A stretch of 32,000 bases of DNA from Nostoc punctiforme PCC 73102 (GTDB lineage Bacteria > Cyanobacteriota > Cyanobacteriia > Cyanobacteriales > Nostocaceae): contig NC_010628.1 in assembly GCF_000020025.1 (NCBI RefSeq), forward strand, positions 4,050,001-4,082,000. Reading direction: 5' to 3'. Of the stretch, positions 8,423-19,720 are shown in pieces (the first letter of the stretch is position 1; each line of letters begins with the position of its first letter). The notes below the pieces were generated by a model, which saw nothing but the letters and a program-made list of their open reading frames with translations, was not told the origin of the DNA and searched no databases. The translations under genes and the position numbers were made by a program.

Positions 8423-8704
8423 AATCTCCGAACTCTTGCAATTGCTTCGTTGCAATCGTAATGACATATCCTAAGTGATTAGGAGGACATGATATAAAGT
8501 GATCGCAGACCATAAACTAGCTTCATCTATATCTGATACGATATACGGCATTCCTCAGTGAAATTAGAAGCCCACACTGTACTTTGTAATCCAAGTCAGC
8601 GCGGCTAGTTTGCGTAAAAATTGATACAAAAGCTTAAGGGCTGTGCTTACTGGTAAAAAAACGGAGTTAAACTAGAATTGCATGGTAACAATCAAAGGAA
8701 AATT

Positions 8705-9310
8705 ATGATGAGCGATCGCGACTATACATTAATCATTGATAAAAGCGGTAGTATGTCCACACCCGACCAAGTGGGCGGTAGAAGTAGATGGGAGATTGCC
8801 CAAGAGTCTACACTGGCTTTGGCAAGAAAGGCCGAACAATTTGACCCCGATGGCATCACCGTTTACTTGTTTTCCGGTAGATTTAAACGCTACGATGATG
8901 TCACCTCAGCCAAAGTCGCACAGATATTTCTCGAAAATGACCCTGCTGGGACGACAAACTTAGCAGGTGTGCTTCAAGACGCAATCAATAATTACTTTCA
9001 ACGTAAAGCAGCCGGTAAAAGCAAGCCAAACGGAGAGACAATTTTAGTCATCACCGATGGTGAACCAGACGATCGCAAAGCGGTTTTTGAAGTCATCATT
9101 CATGCTACTCGCCAGATGGAGCGTGATGAAGAATTAGGAATTTCGATCATTCAAGTAGGTTCAGATGCCCAAGCGACTAAGTTCCTTAAAGCTTTGGATG
9201 ACCAGTTGCAAAGCGTCGGCGCTAAATTTGATATTTGCGATACTGTTACTTTAGACGACTTAGAAGAAATGAGTCTTGTAGATGTATTGACTAACGCAAT
9301 AACTGACTGA
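8705..9310 (+). CDS. Single-domain von Willebrand factor A (vWA) protein with complete MIDAS
   Basis: The ORF track starts at 8678. I prefer ATG 8705 (MMSDRDYTLIIDKSGSM) because the paralog starts MLENRDYTLIIDKSGSM and 'aaaggaaaatt' precedes it. MIDAS residues are DKSGS, 'GTTNLAG' (Thr) and 'ITDGEPDD' (Asp). No signal peptide or TM segment. Confidence 0.85.
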   Translation: MMSDRDYTLIIDKSGSMSTPDQVGGRSRWEIAQESTLALARKAEQFDPDGITVYLFSGRFKRYDDVTSAKVAQIFLENDPAGTTNLAGVLQDAINNYFQRKAAGKSKPNGETILVITDGEPDDRKAVFEVIIHATRQMERDEELGISIIQVGSDAQATKFLKALDDQLQSVGAKFDICDTVTLDDLEEMSLVDVLTNAITD

Positions 9311-9351: not shown

Positions 9352-9956
9352 ATGCTAGAAAATCGTGATTATACCTTAATTATTGACAAAAGCGGCAGCA
9401 TGGCAACCCAAGATCAAAAGGGTGGCAGAAGTAGATGGTTTGCAGCGCAGGAATCTACTTTAGCTTTAGCTAGTAAGTGTGAGCAATTTGACCCAGATGG
9501 TATCACTATTTACTTATTCTCTGGTAAATTCAAGCGATACGAAAACGTGACATCCAGTCTAGTAGGGCAAATTTTCCGAGAAAATGATCCCTCTGGTACA
9601 ACTGACTTGGCAGGTGTGTTAAACACGCAACTGACGATTACTTACAACGCAAAGCAGCCGGTCAAACAAAGCCAAATGGTGAAACAATTTTAGTGGTTAC
9701 TGATGGTGAACCGGACGATCGCAAAGCAGTTATGAAGGTAATTATTGAAGCTTCTCGCCGCATCGATCGAGATGAAGAATTAGCCATTTCCTTCATTCAA
9801 GTTGGCACAGATCCACAAGCTACTCGCTTTCTAAAAGTCTTAGATGATGAACTCCAAAGTGCTGGTGCTAAGTTTGATATCTGCGACACCATTACTATGG
9901 AAGATATGGAAGATATGAGTCTATCAGAAGTGTTGCTCAATGCCATTAATGACTAG
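9352..9956 (+). pseudogene. Tandem vWA paralog interrupted by a 1-nt deletion (two ORFs, 9352-9693 and 9693-9956)
   Basis: In gene 1, '...gca ggt gtg ctt caa gac gca...' aligns to gene 2 '...gca ggt gtg tta -aa cac gca...' at ~9619-9624. After the shift, the other frame reads KHATDDYLQRKAAGQTKPNGETILVVTDGEPDD, colinear with gene 1 QDAINNYFQRKAAGKSKPNGETILVITDGEPDD. Stop TAG 9691-9693 overlaps GTG 9693-9695. Confidence 0.7.
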
Positions 9957-13655: not shown

Positions 13656-14543
13656 TCACTCCTCTTTCCAAGTTTGCAGTTGAAAATAAATTAATACCAG
13701 CGTCACTGCTAGTAACACCGTTGCTGCTGCTGCTGCATAACCAAAATCAAACTGACCAAAAGCCTCTTGATAAATGTAGTAAACCAGCAGATTAGTCGAA
13801 TTCAGCGGCCCGCCGCCAGTCATGACAAAAACTTGCTCAAAACTCCGCAATGTAAAAATCGCGGTAGTAATGACTGCAAATATCACAGTAGGGCGCAATC
13901 CAGGTAGAGTAATATACCAAAATTGTTGCCAAGCATTTGCTCCATCCAAATCTGCTGCTTCATAACGGCTCGGAGGAATTGCTTGCAACCCGGCTAAAAA
14001 AACTACCATATTGAAACCGAGTTGTTTCCAAATACTCATTAAAATAATTACTGGCATTGCCCAAAATGTATCTCCTAGCCAGGGGATGGCTGGAATGCCA
14101 AAAAAATCTAAAAGTCCGTTAACTGGCCCTGATGTTTGAAAGAGCCAGCGAAATCCCAAACCGGCTGCCACAAGTGAAATAATCGAAGGTAAAAAGTATG
14201 CACTCCGCATAATGCCCCGCAAAGGAATAGAGCGGTTTAATAGCACTGCCAATCCCAAGGAAATAACTAAACTGGGAATAATGGTGGCAACAGTAAAATA
14301 AAAGGTGTTACCTATAACTTGCCAAAAGTCAGGGTTGAGTAGCAAGCGCCAATAGTTTTTTAAGCCTATCCAATAAGTACCTTTTAAGGTGAAACTACCA
14401 GCAGTAAAGCTGAGGTAAAACAAATAGGCGATCGGCCAAATGATAAAAACGCCTAGTAAACTTAGTGCTGGTGTGAGAAAAGTCCAGGCAGCTACTGTAT
14501 CATTATCCAACCACGACTTAGTAGTATATATTTTTTTTGGCAT
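13656..14543 (-). CDS. Carbohydrate ABC transporter permease (MalF/UgpA-like), without adjacent partner genes
   Basis: 295 aa with about six hydrophobic helices. The EAA loop is 'EAADLDGANAWQQFWYITLPGLRP'. No second permease, binding protein or ATPase is nearby. Confidence 0.9.
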   Translation of the reverse strand: MPKKIYTTKSWLDNDTVAAWTFLTPALSLLGVFIIWPIAYLFYLSFTAGSFTLKGTYWIGLKNYWRLLLNPDFWQVIGNTFYFTVATIIPSLVISLGLAVLLNRSIPLRGIMRSAYFLPSIISLVAAGLGFRWLFQTSGPVNGLLDFFGIPAIPWLGDTFWAMPVIILMSIWKQLGFNMVVFLAGLQAIPPSRYEAADLDGANAWQQFWYITLPGLRPTVIFAVITTAIFTLRSFEQVFVMTGGGPLNSTNLLVYYIYQEAFGQFDFGYAAAAATVLLAVTLVLIYFQLQTWKEE

Positions 14544-14624
14544 CTATAATTTTTCCTCTTAGCTGTTTATGATCCTCCGCCCTGATTCTACCCTTAGCTT
14601 GGTTTCTCCTCGTATTAGCGATGT
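14521..14624. repeat. Left copy of a ~104-bp direct repeat (permease start plus relic purN 5' end)
   Basis: Manual alignment of the core 14537-14624 against 18711-18797 gives about 8 differences in ~88 aligned nt. Weaker similarity extends ~17 nt further left. The copy contains the real permease ATG (14541-14543, minus strand). Confidence 0.8.
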
Positions 14625-14625
14625 C
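14569..14625 (+). pseudogene. Relic duplicate of the purN 5' end (19 codons)
   Basis: ATG 14569 reads MILRPDSTLSLVSPRISDV, against the purN N-terminus MTLRPDSTLSLISPSISDV (16/19 identical). It then runs into repeat sequence and stops at ~14743. Confidence 0.7.
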
Positions 14626-14646
14626 TACGACGGGCTACGCCTACGC
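14618..14646. repeat. Left arm of a perfect 29-bp inverted repeat
   Basis: 'gcgatgtctacgacgggctacgcctacgc'. Its exact reverse complement 'gcgtaggcgtagcccgtcgtagacatcgc' is at 18326-18354. Related 'ggctacgcc' motifs occur at ~4509 and ~25373. Confidence 0.9.
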
Positions 14647-14690
14647 TTGGGTAAGCTCTTGGTTCATAATTATCTCTACTTAGAGTTTTT

Positions 14691-14855
14691 AGAGGATGTT
14701 TTAAAAGTCCTCTTGTCGCTAACAAAACGTTTCAGATCCCCCTAAATCCCCCTTAAAAAGGGGGACTTTGATTCCGGTTCCCCCCTTTTTAAGGGGGGCT
14801 AGGGGGGATCAATAAGTGCCTAAAATCACAGTAAACTACTTTTAAAACATCCTCT
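14691..14855. mobile_element. MITE-like element (~165 bp) with perfect 18-bp terminal inverted repeats
   Basis: The left TIR 'agaggatgttttaaaagt' (14691-14708) is the exact inverse of the right TIR 'acttttaaaacatcctct' (14838-14855). The interior is itself palindromic: 'gatccccctaaatcccccttaaaaaggggg...cccccctttttaaggggggctaggggggatc'. It has no coding capacity. Flanks are 'tacttagag' and 'tacttaaag'. Confidence 0.65.
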
Positions 14856-14981
14856 TACTTAAAGCTAATCCTAATTTGAGCGACTCTGTTTTTTGAAAAA
14901 AATTAGATCGTTCCGCTTCGCTACACTCTAAAAGGGTAAAAGAAAGAAGGGTAGAGGGCTAAAGAACTAAAGTATAAAGGG

Positions 14982-17900
14982 CTACTGAAGAATCCTCCCG
15001 GCAGCGCACACAATACGAAAACCAATATCGTTGAAGCGGTAGTCGCGCGAGTCGTTGCCGCGATACGCGGAACGGCAGTACTCAGGACTGTCGTCCCAGG
15101 AACCGCCCCGCAGCACTTGAAATTCATTATCATTATCTATCCATGCACTTCCATCAGTAGGCGCTCCTTTATAGCTGTCATGCCAAGTATCTTGGCACCA
15201 CTCCCAGACATTCCCGTGCATATCACATAATCCAAAGGCGTTGGGTGGAAAACTTCCTACTTCTGTTGTTTGTTGACGATATTTTCCCTTTGGTGCAGAA
15301 GCGTAAGTAGAATTTCCATCGTAGTTGGCTAACTCAGTTGTAATCGTCTCACCAAAGTGAAATGGTGTATTTGTGCCAGCACGACAGGCATATTCCCACT
15401 CTGCTTCACTTGGTAGGCGATATTCGCGCCCAGTCTTTTGACTCAGCTTTTTGCAAAATTCTACTGCATCATTCCAGGACACTGTTTCTACAGGACGTTT
15501 TGCTCCCTTGAAGTTGGAGGGATTGCTACCCATTATTTGCTGGTACTGTTCCTGAGTCACTTCAAACTTGCTTATAAAGAAAGCAGGTACATTTACAGCG
15601 TGTTGTGGGTTATGACCAGTTTCCCCGGGTGGTGAACCCATCTTAAATGAACCAGCAAGAATCTCAACCATCTCCAGAGTTATGCCATTACCTAAGTCCT
15701 CCTTAAAGAACTTAGCTTGTTTGGTAGGATCTCGTTTAATTACCTGTCCCTTTTCATCTACTGTTACCGTTTCAAACTTAAAGGTTTCAAGCTTAACGGG
15801 AATATATTTGGATGATTGGCCCTTAAAAATTTCACTACCTACTACTGCTGTCACCAAACCTACACGTCCCAAACCAGCCCACTTCAAAAACTTTTGTCGG
15901 GTAATTCGCTCTTGAGTCGGTTGAGTGGGTTGAGCAGGTCTTGGCTGCTGAATCGGAGATTTAATCAATTCTTGGCTTGCTACAACTCTGGTTTCAATTG
16001 CAGTGATGTCCGTTTGTTTAAGTCCTAGAGTCCGTTGAAGTTGCCTTAACCTCTGTCGAACATCATCACTATCAAGGGAATTCCCTGCTTCAATTGTTTT
16101 AGTTAATTCCTGCTCATACTGCTGTAATTTTTGGCCGTATTCTGCTTCCTCTCGCTGCCTTTGTTTTTCTGCCTCCTGCTGCTTTAGTCGTACAGCTTCT
16201 TGTTGTTGCCGTTGTTTCTCTGCCTCCTCCTGTCTGATTCTCTCTTGCTGTTTCCGGGATTCTGATTCTGAAGATGATTGAATAATAATTGCTTCGAGTT
16301 GAGCTATTTCCGCATCATTTAGTTCTAAAACTTGCTGAAATCGTCGCAACTCTTCACGAGTAGCGTCACTAAGAGGATATTCAAACTGCATCGACTCTCT
16401 AAACACCTCTTCATACTGCTGAAGCTTTTGCCGATGTTCCTCGATCGCAGCAACAATTGGATTTTCTATTGCAGTCACATTCTCAGCAGTCAGATTCAAC
16501 GCTTGATGACGTTGGGTTAGTTGAGAGCGTTTGAAACTACTGAGCGGATATTCTTGTTGAACAGCTTCTCTAAACTCTTGCTCATACTGCCGCAAGTTTG
16601 CTTGATACGTTTCAATCTCCGCATTAATCCGCCTCTCGATCGCCCCCACATCCCCTTCACTCAACCCCAACGTCTGCCAAGTTTCCTGCAACTGTTTCCG
16701 CGTCACCTCATCTGGATAATGCTGGCGCTGCGTCGCCTTCACAAACGCCTGCTCGTACTGCTGGAGTTTTTGATGATAGCTTTCAATCTGCGTGGTGATT
16801 TGTGCTTCAATTGGGGCAACATCTACATCCGTCAGTCCCAAACGCTGCTGTTGTTGGCGTAAATCATTCCGCGTTGCCTCACTAAGGGGATATTCCTGCT
16901 GCGTGGCAGTAAAAAACAGCCGTTGGTAGTCCTGGAGTTTCTGGCGATATGCCTCTACCTCAGCCGTAATCTGAGATTCTATCGCCGCAATATCCCCATT
17001 TGCAAGTTCTAATTGCTGCTGGGTTTGCCGTAAGCGATCGCGGCTTACTGTACTCAGGGGAAACTCCTGTCGCAGTGCTGTTGTAAACGCTTGCTGATAT
17101 GCTTGGAGGTTTTGCTGATGTGTCTTAAACCGTGCAGTTACTTGTGCTTCAATCGGCATCGTGTCTTCATTTCGCAGCCCCAAAATTTGCTGGAGATTTT
17201 GCAAATCGTGGCGATCGCTATCTGTAATTGTCTCATCTCGCTCCAGTAGTTCAGTAAACACCTGCTGATACTGCTGGAGTTTTTCCCGGAAGTCATTGCG
17301 ATACGGTTCCAACACCTCATCTTCAACCGCCTTCGCCTCAGTTGTCTCCAATCCCAAGCGAGTCCTCTGATAATCTAGTGTGCGACGACCAACAAGAGAA
17401 ATTTCGCCTCGATGAATAAATCGCGCAACTTTTTTACGGTATCGCTGTCTGGGATCGCCCGGAGCCACCTTTGCCAGTCGAATTTTAAAACCTTCTCGAA
17501 TTGCATAGATTTCCGGCTTCATTGCAGGTTGAACTTCTCGCACCTTCTGACTTGCGTATTCATGGAGTTCATCGATAGAGATAAACTCATCTTGATCGCG
17601 ATCGGCTTCTCCCGACTTGATACCTTCAATCAAAAAACGAGTGTAAATCGATAAATCTTGTCCCTCTTGCTCAAAGGAATATTGAGTCGAGGTAGAAGAA
17701 GTCAATACTGCTCGTCCTTCACCGCCTAACTGCTCTCGGATGTCAATCGTGCCGTCATCTTTGGCAGACATACCCTCAGCAAACGCGCCACTAAAGCAGC
17801 TATCTAGGATTACTACCTGCCGACGGGAGCGGCTTTCGCTCATGCGATCGTGAATGAAATTGGCAGACACCGACGTTGAGCGAATCAATTCGCCCTGCTG

Positions 17901-18203
17901 CGTTTTACTGGTGTTACGAGTCGCCAGATAGAGCCTACCGCGATCGTCTTTGATGCCGTGTCCCGAAAAATACAGCAACAGCAAATCATCTTTGTGCCGA
18001 CCGGAGAACAGCGTTTCGATCGCAATTTCTACAATTTGTCGTTCAGGATTTTTTAGCAGGGTAATATCTGACGCAGCAAACCCGCCCATCTCGCTATGCA
18101 GCAGTACCTCACAAACTGCTTCCACATCTCTAACTGCACTGGGCAAAGGGTTCAGCCCTGGCTCATACTCACTGACCCCAATCAGCAACGCTACCTTCGC
18201 CAT
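14982..18203 (-). CDS. Orthocaspase (peptidase C14) / 8 x 57-aa repeats / putative TM / FGE-sulfatase (SUMF1-like) domain protein
   Basis: 1073 aa. Caspase domain, aa 1-~245: 'VALLIGVSEY', 'LLLLYFSGH82G', 'VVILDSC136FSG'. Repeats span aa ~252-748. The hydrophobic segment is 'WAGLGRVGLVTAVVGSEIF' (aa ~775-793). FGE-sulfatase motifs, aa ~842-1068: 'RLPSEAEWEYACRAG', 'GLCDMHGNVWEWCQD', 'LRGGSW', 'IGFRIVCA'. Confidence 0.92.
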   Translation of the reverse strand: MAKVALLIGVSEYEPGLNPLPSAVRDVEAVCEVLLHSEMGGFAASDITLLKNPERQIVEIAIETLFSGRHKDDLLLLYFSGHGIKDDRGRLYLATRNTSKTQQGELIRSTSVSANFIHDRMSESRSRRQVVILDSCFSGAFAEGMSAKDDGTIDIREQLGGEGRAVLTSSTSTQYSFEQEGQDLSIYTRFLIEGIKSGEADRDQDEFISIDELHEYASQKVREVQPAMKPEIYAIREGFKIRLAKVAPGDPRQRYRKKVARFIHRGEISLVGRRTLDYQRTRLGLETTEAKAVEDEVLEPYRNDFREKLQQYQQVFTELLERDETITDSDRHDLQNLQQILGLRNEDTMPIEAQVTARFKTHQQNLQAYQQAFTTALRQEFPLSTVSRDRLRQTQQQLELANGDIAAIESQITAEVEAYRQKLQDYQRLFFTATQQEYPLSEATRNDLRQQQQRLGLTDVDVAPIEAQITTQIESYHQKLQQYEQAFVKATQRQHYPDEVTRKQLQETWQTLGLSEGDVGAIERRINAEIETYQANLRQYEQEFREAVQQEYPLSSFKRSQLTQRHQALNLTAENVTAIENPIVAAIEEHRQKLQQYEEVFRESMQFEYPLSDATREELRRFQQVLELNDAEIAQLEAIIIQSSSESESRKQQERIRQEEAEKQRQQQEAVRLKQQEAEKQRQREEAEYGQKLQQYEQELTKTIEAGNSLDSDDVRQRLRQLQRTLGLKQTDITAIETRVVASQELIKSPIQQPRPAQPTQPTQERITRQKFLKWAGLGRVGLVTAVVGSEIFKGQSSKYIPVKLETFKFETVTVDEKGQVIKRDPTKQAKFFKEDLGNGITLEMVEILAGSFKMGSPPGETGHNPQHAVNVPAFFISKFEVTQEQYQQIMGSNPSNFKGAKRPVETVSWNDAVEFCKKLSQKTGREYRLPSEAEWEYACRAGTNTPFHFGETITTELANYDGNSTYASAPKGKYRQQTTEVGSFPPNAFGLCDMHGNVWEWCQDTWHDSYKGAPTDGSAWIDNDNEFQVLRGGSWDDSPEYCRSAYRGNDSRDYRFNDIGFRIVCAAGRILQ
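15960..17450 (-). repeat. Intragenic array of eight 171-nt (57-aa) coding repeats
   Basis: The anchor 'LQxY(Q/E)QxF' recurs at aa 309, 366, 423, 480, 537 and 594, an exact 57-aa spacing, and again at 692 after a charged insert. The unit pattern is LQxYxQxF-x7-(E/F)YPLS-x3-R-x2-L-x3-QQ-x-LGL-x3-D(V/I)-x2-IE-x-(Q/R)I-x6-(Y/H)-x2-(K/N). Copies are diverged at the DNA level. Confidence 0.85.
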
Positions 18204-18325
18204 TTAATTTACCTATGCTGCGATCAAATCCTATACGGCTTTAATCTCTGTATTGTTTCATTTATACCAAGTTTTAGAATATTATCTCTATCAACCGGAC
18301 TAGATTATAAGCAAAATTTAATCAA

Positions 18326-18354
18326 GCGTAGGCGTAGCCCGTCGTAGACATCGC
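18326..18354. repeat. Right arm of the perfect 29-bp inverted repeat
   Basis: It is the exact reverse complement of 14618-14646. It lies 123 nt upstream of the caspase start codon (18203, minus strand). Confidence 0.9.
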
Positions 18355-18419
18355 AACATAGAAAGAGACACTGCTAAATTACAGCAGTTTTCATATATTT
18401 GAATCACACCTGTCGTAAG

Positions 18420-18437
18420 GGCGCAAGGTCTTGCGCC
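18420..18437. repeat. Hairpin of the 'ctgtcgtaRGGG' dispersed repeat family
   Basis: 'ggcgcaa ggtc ttgcgcc' (7-bp stem) is preceded by 'cacctgtcgtaagg'. Compare 'catctgtcgtagggg' at 4585-4599. Confidence 0.55.
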
Positions 18438-18515
18438 TCTATCGCGTGGTCTATTTACTACGATTTAGTAGAGCATTTCATTAATCCATAGCAAATTAAA
18501 TTTGGCAATACCCTG

Positions 18516-18662
18516 CAATGTTAATGCATCGGCTGACAATGCCAATACATAGGGTAACAATACCAATGTATCGGGTAACAATGCCAATACATCGGTTGAC
18601 AATGCTAATGCATCGGGTAACAATGCCAATGCATCGGGTAACAATATTAATGCGTCCTTTTG
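18516..18662. repeat. 21-bp tandem repeat, about 7 units (consensus caatgccaatgcatcgggtaa)
   Basis: Units start at 18516, 18537, 18558, 18579, 18600, 18621 and 18642 (the last degenerate). Each unit has 1-4 substitutions. The array lies in the divergent region between the caspase gene and purN. Confidence 0.9.
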
Positions 18663-18693
18663 CATTAAACAAGCTACGCTTTTACACAAAAGT

Positions 18694-18717
18694 GTACGTA
18701 TTATATCTTTTTGGCAT
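18694..18717 (-). pseudogene. Relic duplicate of the ABC-permease 5' end (8 codons)
   Basis: The reverse complement 'atgccaaaaagatataatacgtac' reads MPKRYNTY, against the real permease 'atgccaaaaaaaatatatactac' reading MPKKIYTT. The frame closes shortly after. Confidence 0.6.
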
Positions 18718-18797
18718 CTATAATTTTCCCTTTTAGCTGTTATGACCCTCCGCCCTGATTCTACCCTGAGCTTGATTTCTCCCAGTATTAGCGATGT
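18694..18797. repeat. Right copy of the ~104-bp direct repeat (relic permease start plus real purN 5' end)
   Basis: See 14521-14624. This copy contains the purN ATG (18742) and a relic 'cat' (18715-18717) at the same 25-nt spacing seen in the left copy. Confidence 0.8.
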
Positions 18798-19395
18798 TCG
18801 CCAACAAGTCGCCCCTTTAAAGCTGGGAATTATGGCTTCTGGGAATGGCAGCAATTTTGATGTAGTTGCTCAAGCTATCCAAGATGGACAACTAAATGCC
18901 CAAATTCAAGTTTTAATTTACAATAATCCCTCGGCGAAAGCAGCCGTCAGAGCAGCTAATAGAGGTGTAGAAGCTGTTTTATTGAATCACCGCAACTATA
19001 AAATCCGAGAAGAGTTGGATGAGAAAATTGTGCAGACATTGCAGCACTACGATGTGGAATGGGTGATTTTGGCGGGTTGGATGCGATTGTTAACGTCAGT
19101 TTTCATTGATGCCTTTCCTGACAAAATTATTAATATCCATCCTAGTTTGTTACCTAGTTTCAAGGGAATCCATGCTGTAGAACAAGCCTTGGCATCTGGG
19201 GTAAAAATTACTGGTTGTACGGCGCATATCGCTTGTTTAGAAATGGACAGTGGCCCAATATTGATGCAAGCCGCAGTACCAGTATTGCCAGATGATACAG
19301 CAGAAACACTCCACGCCAGGATTCAAATTCAAGAACATCGAATTTTGCCGCTAGCGATCGCTCTGGCAGCTTCTTCGTCAAAGTCATTTTTTTAA
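18742..19395 (+). CDS. purN: Phosphoribosylglycinamide formyltransferase
   Basis: 217 aa with 'KLGIMASGNGSNF', 'ILAGWMRLL', 'IINIHPSLLPSFKG' and 'GCTAHIACLEMDSGPIL'. Start 18742 is the only in-frame ATG upstream of the first beta-strand, giving a ~25-aa N-terminal extension. Confidence 0.92.
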   Translation: MTLRPDSTLSLISPSISDVRQQVAPLKLGIMASGNGSNFDVVAQAIQDGQLNAQIQVLIYNNPSAKAAVRAANRGVEAVLLNHRNYKIREELDEKIVQTLQHYDVEWVILAGWMRLLTSVFIDAFPDKIINIHPSLLPSFKGIHAVEQALASGVKITGCTAHIACLEMDSGPILMQAAVPVLPDDTAETLHARIQIQEHRILPLAIALAASSSKSFF

Positions 19396-19520
19396 CGTAG
19401 ACGCAGAGGCACAGAGAAGCCAGTGCGTTGGGGAGACAGCGCCGTGGGCGGGTTTCCCGACTTGAGGCGACTGTCGTCGGGTTCCCCGACTTGTAGCAAC
19501 TGGCGCGACACAGAGAAAAG
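19396..19520. repeat. Cluster of small dispersed repeats downstream of purN
   Basis: 'cgtagacgcagaggcacagagaag' (19396-19419) has an inverted relative at 13549-13581. Two units 29 nt apart follow: 'gggtttcccgacttgaggcgactg' (19450-19473) and 'gggttccccgacttgtagcaactg' (19479-19502). Confidence 0.6.
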
Positions 19521-19600
19521 AAAGAGAAGGAAAAAATTGCTTAACTGAACTGTAGTGGTCTATAAATCAATACAGTTCAGATAAGAGCAAAACACTTGTA

Positions 19601-19623
19601 GAGACGGCGATTTATCGCGTCTC
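19601..19623. repeat. 'gagacg...cgtctc' hairpin repeat
   Basis: 'gagacggcga ttta tcgcgtctc' is preceded by 'cttgta'. It belongs to the same family as 10398-10423 and ~2505-2520. There is no flanking U-tract on either strand. Confidence 0.5.
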
Positions 19624-19720
19624 AAAACCCCAAAATTTTTGCCAGTAGCCCTTAAATGAACCGTATTGGTCTATAAGTAAGTTTTCGTAACGTGCATTAA
19701 TCCCTGGTTGTTGACAGTAT

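Follow-up and report, generated by a model that had tools for sequence, protein, structure and literature searches.

Segmental duplication by unequal exchange, HIP1-associated recombination and the EACC1-caspase conflict systems are the described phenomena closest to the locus reported here, in which a caspase gene of Nostoc punctiforme PCC 73102 lies between the divergent starts of an ABC-transporter permease gene and purN and is flanked by direct repeats. As in a segmental duplication by unequal exchange, two direct copies of a unit enclose other DNA, with a novel joint at 10-11 nt centred on an octamer of the highly iterated palindrome HIP1; one copy of each duplicated gene decays, and collapse restores the original site. 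The locus differs in that only ~90 nt are left here, mimicking a long target-site duplication, in that the enclosed DNA is mobile defence-type cargo, and in that the intermediate with two intact copies was not observed. Campbell-type single-crossover integration of a circular molecule that carries a patch of homology would formally give the same product. For HIP1, the literature reports a link to both site-specific and illegitimate recombination (PMC4390886), as well as a Chi-like effect on transformation (bioRxiv 10.1101/2024.09.10.611283). EACC1 and its caspase form a two-gene conflict or defence system with the architecture described by Kaur et al. (2020, PMC7159879), and in the one system tested experimentally EACC1 is a pore-forming effector that is freed by caspase cleavage (PMC12642450). 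In kind, the locus is a segmental duplication with reciprocal decay, a hot-spot islet of defence and toxin-antitoxin genes and a site of HIP1-associated rearrangement, all of which are known. In our assessment, the repeats are probably what erosion has left at the ends of a single old direct duplication, in which two copies of the head-to-head permease-purN pair enclosed defence-type cargo.

The stretch analysed, hereafter the window, comprises 32,000 nt of contig NC_010628.1 (positions 4,050,001-4,082,000), and all coordinates of the strain given below are those of the window. It was compared with the best 80 Nostoc purN loci (91-99% protein identity) obtained by scanning species-representative genomes with purN. 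Together with the window these make 81 loci of ~1.4 Mb, which were mapped with tblastn and blastn; L-numbers are labels of loci. The features that define the repeats and the DNA between them are as follows.

13656..14543, minus strand: live ABC-transporter permease gene, 295 aa, Pfam BPD_transp_1; left copy of the putative duplicated unit
14534..14624, plus strand: core of the left direct repeat, with the permease start, a 25-nt spacer and dead purN codons 1-18
14982..18203, minus strand: caspase gene, 1073 aa, Peptidase_C14 at residues 3-232 and FGE-sulfatase at 844-1065
18699..18797, plus strand: right direct repeat, with a dead permease start, a 24-nt spacer and live purN codons 1-18
18742..19395, plus strand: live purN, 217 aa, with a HIP1 site at 19354-19361 (codons 205-207)

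The core of the left repeat (14534-14624) matches 18708-18797 in 83 of 91 columns (91.2%) with a single 1-nt indel. Over the ~104 bp for which an earlier note on this DNA had reported about 90% identity, 94 of 106 columns agree (88.7%; 14521-14624 against 18694-18797), in keeping with that report. The relic gene starts are also as the note had read them: the left copy joins the live permease ATG to dead purN codons 1-18 (14569-14622) and the right copy joins the live purN ATG to a dead permease start, which extends to 18717. Only the left spacer (14544-14568) has the 25 nt that had been stated for both; the right one (18718-18741) has 24 nt. Each contains a TATAAT (14545-14550 and 18719-18724), read straight from the sequence and conserved. 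The 19th codon of the purN relic ('V') belongs to a 21-nt mini-element in a HIP1 site and not to purN. Within the window, two sub-patterns of the repeat unit were each counted twice and no more, where shuffles predict none. When the further copies that the note had asked for were sought, the unit was confined to the permease/purN junction in the 81 loci, with one or two copies per locus, ruling out a dispersed repeat. Permease orthologues at 92-99% identity were found in 60 loci.

An empty site with the two genes directly divergent had been predicted, and the permease and purN start codons do lie 21-26 nt apart in 31 of the 80 Nostoc species. The two genes are separated by 490 aa or more of caspase sequence in 26 loci, the window counted, and by remnants in 14; the other 10 loci are rearranged or interrupted by contig ends. 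The segment between the repeats is a presence/absence polymorphism among Nostoc. Junctions of this kind, with TATAAT in the spacer, are also found in outgroups, at spacings of 21 nt (Nodularia NIES-3585) and 24 nt (N. linckia z18). Ancestrally, therefore, the two genes stood back to back with no cargo between them, as the note had supposed.

The evidence on what was duplicated comes from relatives in which the dead copies are better preserved than in the window. Three features of the window are needed for the comparison.

14618..14646, plus strand: HIP1 octamer (GCGAT/CGC) at the joint between purN relic and cargo, interrupted by a 21-nt mini-element resembling small dispersed repeat 5 (SDR5)
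14644..14686, plus strand: single copy of the S repeat (core 14645-14671), at the left end of the cargo
18457..18471, minus strand: upstream vestige of the permease, ACTACGATTTAGTAG against the live ACCACGACTTAGTAG at 14510-14524 (13/15, p = 0.035)

The left purN relic extends to codon ~42 in L016, L051 and L074 and to codon ~28 in L023. Only its 3' part (aa ~170-207) is present in L021, L049, L056 and L007, and L028 retains both ends in one copy that is internally deleted. The five 3' relics all stop at the HIP1 octamer GCGATCGC, which is purN codons 205-207 (19354-19361 in the live copy), and past the octamer they pass into GCTTGGGTAAGCTCTTGGTTCATAATT..., the sequence named S. The right half of S was tried as a decayed purN tail and rejected (z = -0.1 to 2.5 in 12 comparisons with shuffles); S past the octamer is not derived from purN, and therefore the purN relic ends, and the joint sits, at HIP1. 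In the window, purN codons 1-18 are fused to the same octamer (TTAGCGAT|CGC), this fusion at codon 18 being one of a number of internal deletions that arose independently. The permease relic on the right side extends as far as nt 66, and its junction CTCACA|TAAATAGG is seen in L003, L008 and no fewer than 24 further loci (at least 26 in all); a TGG>TAG change in this relic is common to nine loci. The right repeat of the window also continues leftward with an interruption, the vestige at 18457-18471 lying beyond a ~225-bp array element; in L003 and L008 the whole permease relic is present at the site of the vestige, up to the common junction. The length of the repeat among species accordingly ranges from ~20 to >600 nt, and the window retains 54 nt of purN and ~20 nt plus the 15-nt vestige of the permease.

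Because relics of relatives reach purN codon 207 and permease nt 66, the original duplication is shown to have spanned at least 66 + 24/25 + 621 nt, ~0.71 kb. The identity of the two junctions in dozens of Nostoc species indicates that it arose once. Homology that lengthens in less-decayed alleles, and a single short-sequence joint with the same junctions in all carriers, are what a duplication followed by decay leaves behind. The relics are about as similar to their own live copy (0.905) as to live copies from other species (0.895). Divergence is also faster among relics, with similarities of 0.89 against 0.93 among live copies, which points to an old event without strong homogenisation. No diagnostic substitution consistently splits relic from live purN 5' ends, and only the average distances are informative in this respect.

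These relics bear directly on the mechanism favoured by the earlier note, in which a circle with the caspase gene, miniature inverted-repeat transposable element (MITE), hairpins and array, together with a ~104-bp homologous patch, was integrated by a single crossover into the 25-nt junction. That repeats hold relic starts of both genes, that empty sites exist and that transposase and integrase are absent all agree with it. The figure of ~100 bp duplicated does not stand, given that alleles with the same junctions keep purN to codon ~42 or 207 and the permease to nt 66; with these longer relics nothing need have entered the 25-nt spacer, and the 104-bp patch is an artefact of decay in this lineage. 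The MITE, 21-mers and array are moreover missing from many such alleles and are thus later. We consider integration through a 104-bp patch very improbable.

A possible state before the duplication is seen in N. linckia NIES-25, in which the same cargo, oriented as in the islands, directly adjoins an intact permease-purN unit, in the order toxin remnant::S, mazEF, S, caspase, short EACC1 relic, ~270 nt, complete permease, 24 nt and purN. In each of the six sequences tested, the block that adjoins the permease relic on its left can be aligned with the 40 nt preceding the NIES-25 permease stop (p = 0.004-0.125), and a full-length right permease copy is thereby suggested. The duplication probably started from cargo just beyond the permease, as in NIES-25, with a unit that probably included the whole permease, ~1.5 kb plus cargo. 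Its most likely origin is an illegitimate exchange between the HIP1 of purN and that of S, over 10-11 nt of common sequence, which may have taken place either as an unequal crossover between chromosome copies or as the excision of a circle that was later integrated by a homologous (Campbell-type) crossover, and both routes would give the same product, permease-J-purN(1-207)-S-cargo-permease-J-purN, where J is the junction. The redundant copies subsequently decayed, the left purN through a number of deletions that arose independently within it, the right permease until 66 nt were left. The island later spread or disappeared among Nostoc; homologous recombination in the flanking genes would account for its spread, and collapse between the repeats or between copies of S for its loss. 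The Campbell-type single crossover of the earlier note is retained as one of two equivalent routes, its 104-bp patch being replaced by ~0.7-1.5 kb of homology. Decay was extreme in the window, which therefore has the look of a ~100-bp target duplication.

Several observations weigh against this reconstruction. The block to the left of the permease relic has no significant similarity to the Nostoc permease 3' flanks of all loci, and the postulated intermediate, a genome with two full permease copies, was not seen. The NIES-25 cargo is closer to island alleles, with 94% for mazEF and 92% for the N-terminal region of the caspase, than its permease and purN are, at 85-86%. As this cargo falls within the diversity of the island alleles, the change between the NIES-25 and island types could have run either way, and NIES-25 may have acquired the cargo secondarily. 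The purN gene tree (642 nt) is also too short to call the empty sites of Nostoc sensu stricto primary or secondary. Trees of the caspase N-terminal domain and of mazEF, tried as a means to polarise NIES-25, were uninformative, a paralogue from another locus (L098) nesting inside as well. The cargo has clearly been exchanged.

In a rival with a mechanism of the same kind, the duplicated unit was only the documented ~0.71 kb (permease nt 1-66 to purN codon 207), the right permease was never full and NIES-25 is unrelated or secondary. In one form, a circle or fragment with those ends carried the cargo and was integrated by homologous crossover; in a two-step form, cargo first disrupted purN at its 3' HIP1, after which homology-facilitated illegitimate recombination brought in an intact purN together with 66 nt of permease. 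The rival fits the lack of a second full permease anywhere among the loci, the lack of general similarity of the pre-junction block to permease 3' flanks, and the appearance of recent exchange in the NIES-25 cargo. It requires, on the other hand, that the same cargo came to lie beside the same gene pair twice independently, with identical orientation each time. Alignments of the pre-junction block to the 3' flank of the NIES-25 permease, moreover, consistently fall at a single place. We regard the smaller unit as possible but unlikely, and the duplication of the whole permease-purN pair remains the preferred reading.

Three breakpoints fall in HIP1 octamers. The first, purN::S, lies at the GCGATCGC common to purN codons 205-207 and S. 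The second is a fusion in NIES-25 of a toxin HIP1 and an antitoxin HIP1 that are 469 nt apart in L033 (6062 and 6531), where both sites have CTAA(A/G)GCGATCGCTT. The third belongs to a rearrangement that parts purN from the permease in L039 (5600-5812) and L047 (6830-7043) and breaks at GCGATCGC|TAAAGGATG. HIP1 is found on both partners in two of at least three breakpoints, and with a HIP1 density of 0.93 per kb its presence at the joints by chance is unlikely. As in the HIP1-associated recombination described before, at least three breakpoints lie exactly in GCGATCGC, and two mini-elements have entered one HIP1 octamer. The joints here differ in being natural rearrangements inferred by comparison and not measured events, and microhomology explains them without dedicated HIP1 machinery. 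Microhomology from an abundant octamer is the simplest reading. It is distinctly unlikely, in our judgement, that HIP1 sites are the preferred crossover points of a process that builds and reshuffles small Nostoc defence arrays, here the S-bracketed modules, and can duplicate adjacent housekeeping genes. Several joints reuse the same S octamer and HIP1 occurs about once per kb, so that the events are not fully independent, which counts against the preferred reading of the duplication.

The S repeat invites comparison with cassette arrays. In relatives it is ~105 nt long and consists of the promoter and first ~23 codons of a UPF0175-like antitoxin gene, of which the window copy retains the promoter and first 8 codons (MNQELTQA), on the minus strand. 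The relatives contain 54 copies, 1-4 per island, in one orientation and at module boundaries, and none lies outside the island in 1.4 Mb of loci. A genome-wide repeat was rejected as an explanation, a search of metagenome contigs with the 20-mer core having matched the same Nostoc locus plus two chance hits. The modules of the relatives' islands are MazF/RHH, BrnT/BrnA, HigB-like/HTH_37 and UPF0175-like/PDC-S70, plus one insertion sequence (IS), with mazEF and the caspase on the minus strand and brnTA and higBA on the plus strand, and their content varies freely between species. Islands with modules bracketed by S include L043 (3900-7600), L061 (5600-7650) and L033 (5900-6600). The Vibrio superintegron and the pdif modules of Acinetobacter likewise consist of small, often toxin-antitoxin modules with a ~100-nt repeat in one orientation and vary between strains. 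The repeat of this locus differs from theirs in having no hairpin, no attC or Xer core and no nearby integrase, and in being the 5' end of a gene.

A site-specific array of integron-like or dif-module-like cassettes would take S as the site, the 3' HIP1 of purN as the primary attachment and a recombinase encoded elsewhere. It is favoured by the number, single orientation, boundary position and island restriction of S, by modules free to vary in content, and by several joints at the octamer inside S. No fold was obtained for S, its consensus folded as single-stranded DNA on both strands giving z = 0.48 and 0.35 against shuffles, so that an attC-like hairpin was rejected; it has no recognisable attC core and is an antitoxin promoter with ~23 codons. 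No recombinase was found in the window or in the islands of relatives, apart from one IS in L041. Long S copies do not begin at HIP1 on their left side, no S half-site lies at the right end of the island, and homologous exchange between S copies accounts for gain and loss equally well. With no attC-like fold, no intI and modules on both strands, membership in the integron or pdif arrays is not supported, and we judge a site-specific array to be quite improbable. The S-bracketed array of modules is the sole feature that known systems do not match.

The smaller repeats of the segment are additions to the duplicated structure. They comprise the following.

14623..14643, plus strand: 21-nt SDR5-like mini-element GTCTACGACGGGCTACGCCTA, in the HIP1 of the joint (GCGAT^CGC)
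14687..14855, no strand assigned: MITE-like insertion with 18-nt perfect terminal inverted repeats (14691-14708 and 14838-14855); secondary
18329..18349, minus strand: second, inverted copy of the 21-nt SDR5-like element, without counterpart in L014, L025, L033 and L075
18474..18698, no strand assigned: ~225-bp element with a 21-bp tandem array (18516-18645), 6.2 copies of CAATGCCAATGCATCGGGTAA; secondary

The joint octamer is uninterrupted (ATTAGCGATCGCTTGGGTAAGC) in L006, L050, L052, L053 and L061 and holds the same 21-mer in the window, L004, L008, L029, L041 and L059; in L003 and L014 it is occupied by another mini-element, at GCG^ATCGC. Two distinct ~20-nt mini-elements have entered this HIP1 octamer independently. 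The 21-mer is dispersed, with copies at unrelated positions in other loci, and its inverted second copy gives rise to a 37-nt inverted repeat, I1 (14618-14654 and 18318-18354). SDR5 elements insert between nt 3 and 4 of HIP1, according to statements in PMC4390886 and PMC5861425 that cite Elhai et al. 2008. By the measure of those statements, the window 21-mer resembles SDR5 in its insertion behaviour: it is a module of ~20 nt that sits exactly within HIP1, occupies some orthologous sites but not others, and is dispersed. The MITE interrupts S, and where it is missing (L008, L029, L033, L046) S directly meets the 3' flank of the caspase gene. It has terminal inverted repeats, no coding capacity, orthologous absence and partial copies in other loci and in cyanobacterial plasmids. 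The ~225-bp element sits inside the dead permease copy, splitting the relic in L003, L008 and the window; it occurs only in L001-L008, L042, L050, L053 and L060, and its copy number varies. The earlier note had let the MITE, hairpins and 21-bp array enter with the caspase gene. Many relatives with the same two junctions lack them, and the MITE, hairpin 21-mers and array are therefore later, lineage-restricted additions.

A transposon or IS with target-site duplication, or an integrase-type element leaving attL and attR, would also account for direct repeats around a segment missing from other genomes. No transposase, integrase or other recombinase was found in the window, as the earlier note had noticed, and the window contains no tRNA or tmRNA. 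I1 abuts only the left repeat, its right arm being 340 nt from the right repeat, and it is made of the dispersed 21-mer. The repeats are themselves gene fragments whose length differs between species. Such an element is hardly conceivable as the source of these repeats. Scans of the window against Rfam gave no matches, and a promoter scan found 10 against 7.1 expected, the level of chance.

The cargo of the window is an EACC1-type caspase without EACC1. Peptidase_C14 and FGE-sulfatase are the only Pfam domains in the single real open reading frame of the segment. The caspase domain belongs to NCBIfam NF047832, 'caspase, EACC1-associated type' (173 bits against a cut-off of 140), with the motifs SGHG at residue 80 (His) and DSC at 134 (Cys). 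Homologues have the N-terminal ~60% of the protein in common and are diverse in their C-terminal domains, and the constant N-terminal caspase with a variable C-terminal domain is shared with the described EACC1-caspase systems. The middle of the protein contains tandem-like repeats of 57 aa (171 nt; 16100-17300); orthologues are 1011 to 1112 aa long, and this variation apparently stems from changes in repeat number. What is left of the partner gene is a single feature.

18214..18252, minus strand: EACC1 relic of ~12 terminal codons with the stop, immediately 5' of the caspase start

The relic reads ATTAAAGCCGTATAGGATTTGATCGCAGCATAGG, against ATTAAAGCAGCTCAAGATTTTGTAGCAGCATAGG at the intact EACC1 3' ends of L098 and L095. 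Where the caspase homologues lie at other loci (L095, L096, L098), each is preceded by a 125-aa gene at a distance of 10-13 nt. With two EACC1 queries, tblastn gave no further EACC1 match in the 81 purN loci, the window included, or in NIES-25. Because only the last ~12 EACC1 codons are recognisable, the caspase is orphaned in all island alleles examined and in NIES-25, with a reading frame that is intact in many species. Lacking the gene for the EACC1 effector, the window differs from the described systems in that it would be decapitated as a death-effector system.

The two HIP1 sites placed by the earlier note in the caspase gene are there (17034 and 17211), and the cyanobacterial origin of the cargo that it proposed is upheld by a HIP1 density of 0.62/kb, against 0.75/kb for the window, and by close homologues that all come from Nostoc. 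No plasmid or phage source emerged when the island and a relative with four cassettes were compared by megablast with 72,556 plasmids, the matches being only paralogous FGE domains and MITE hairpins. The islands of L053 (-7955..-250 relative to purN) and L060 each contain two caspase copies, with mazEF and brnTA modules between them, which indicates further internal duplication in these islands.

The permease/purN junction has received other DNA as well. In Desmonostoc muscorum (L089, 5575-7001) it is occupied by an unrelated Pilin_GH gene without flanking repeats, and in Nostoc PCC 7524 (L090, 6403-6480) the spacer is enlarged to ~125 nt; the junction has thus been struck repeatedly in separate lineages. 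Pilin_GH is also a C-terminal domain within this caspase family. The dead permease relic is kept 5' of purN with unrelated genes beyond it in L019, L039, L045, L047, L067 and L079, where larger rearrangements have broken the locus. Downstream of purN (19396-19720) the window has tandem and inverted hairpin-type repeats at 19444-19501 and 19540-19585. This flank is non-syntenic across species, an aldehyde dehydrogenase gene being next to purN only in L003-L006 and L020, and the right flank of purN is therefore a variable region too. Elsewhere in the window, two neighbouring open reading frames with VWA domains lie at 8678-9310 and 9352-9693, the second of merely 113 aa; it may be a truncated copy, as both VWA genes in the corresponding syntenic region of N. 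punctiforme UO1 (L097) encode 201 aa.

In summary, a long 'target duplication' can be an illusion left by a larger duplication with reciprocal decay, and the locus is a caution for insertion mechanisms inferred from a single genome. The case is instructive yet represents fairly ordinary genome evolution. Its three precisely mapped natural breakpoints in HIP1 bear on the decades-old question of HIP1 function, and microhomology explains these joints without a special function of HIP1. If HIP1 sites were nevertheless preferred crossover points, the locus would be a natural record of HIP1-dependent, integrase-independent cassette exchange, beyond chance microhomology. With its variable islet of defence-type genes, the conserved head-to-head gene pair also stands out as a recombination hot spot in Nostoc, many members of which are lichen or plant symbionts.

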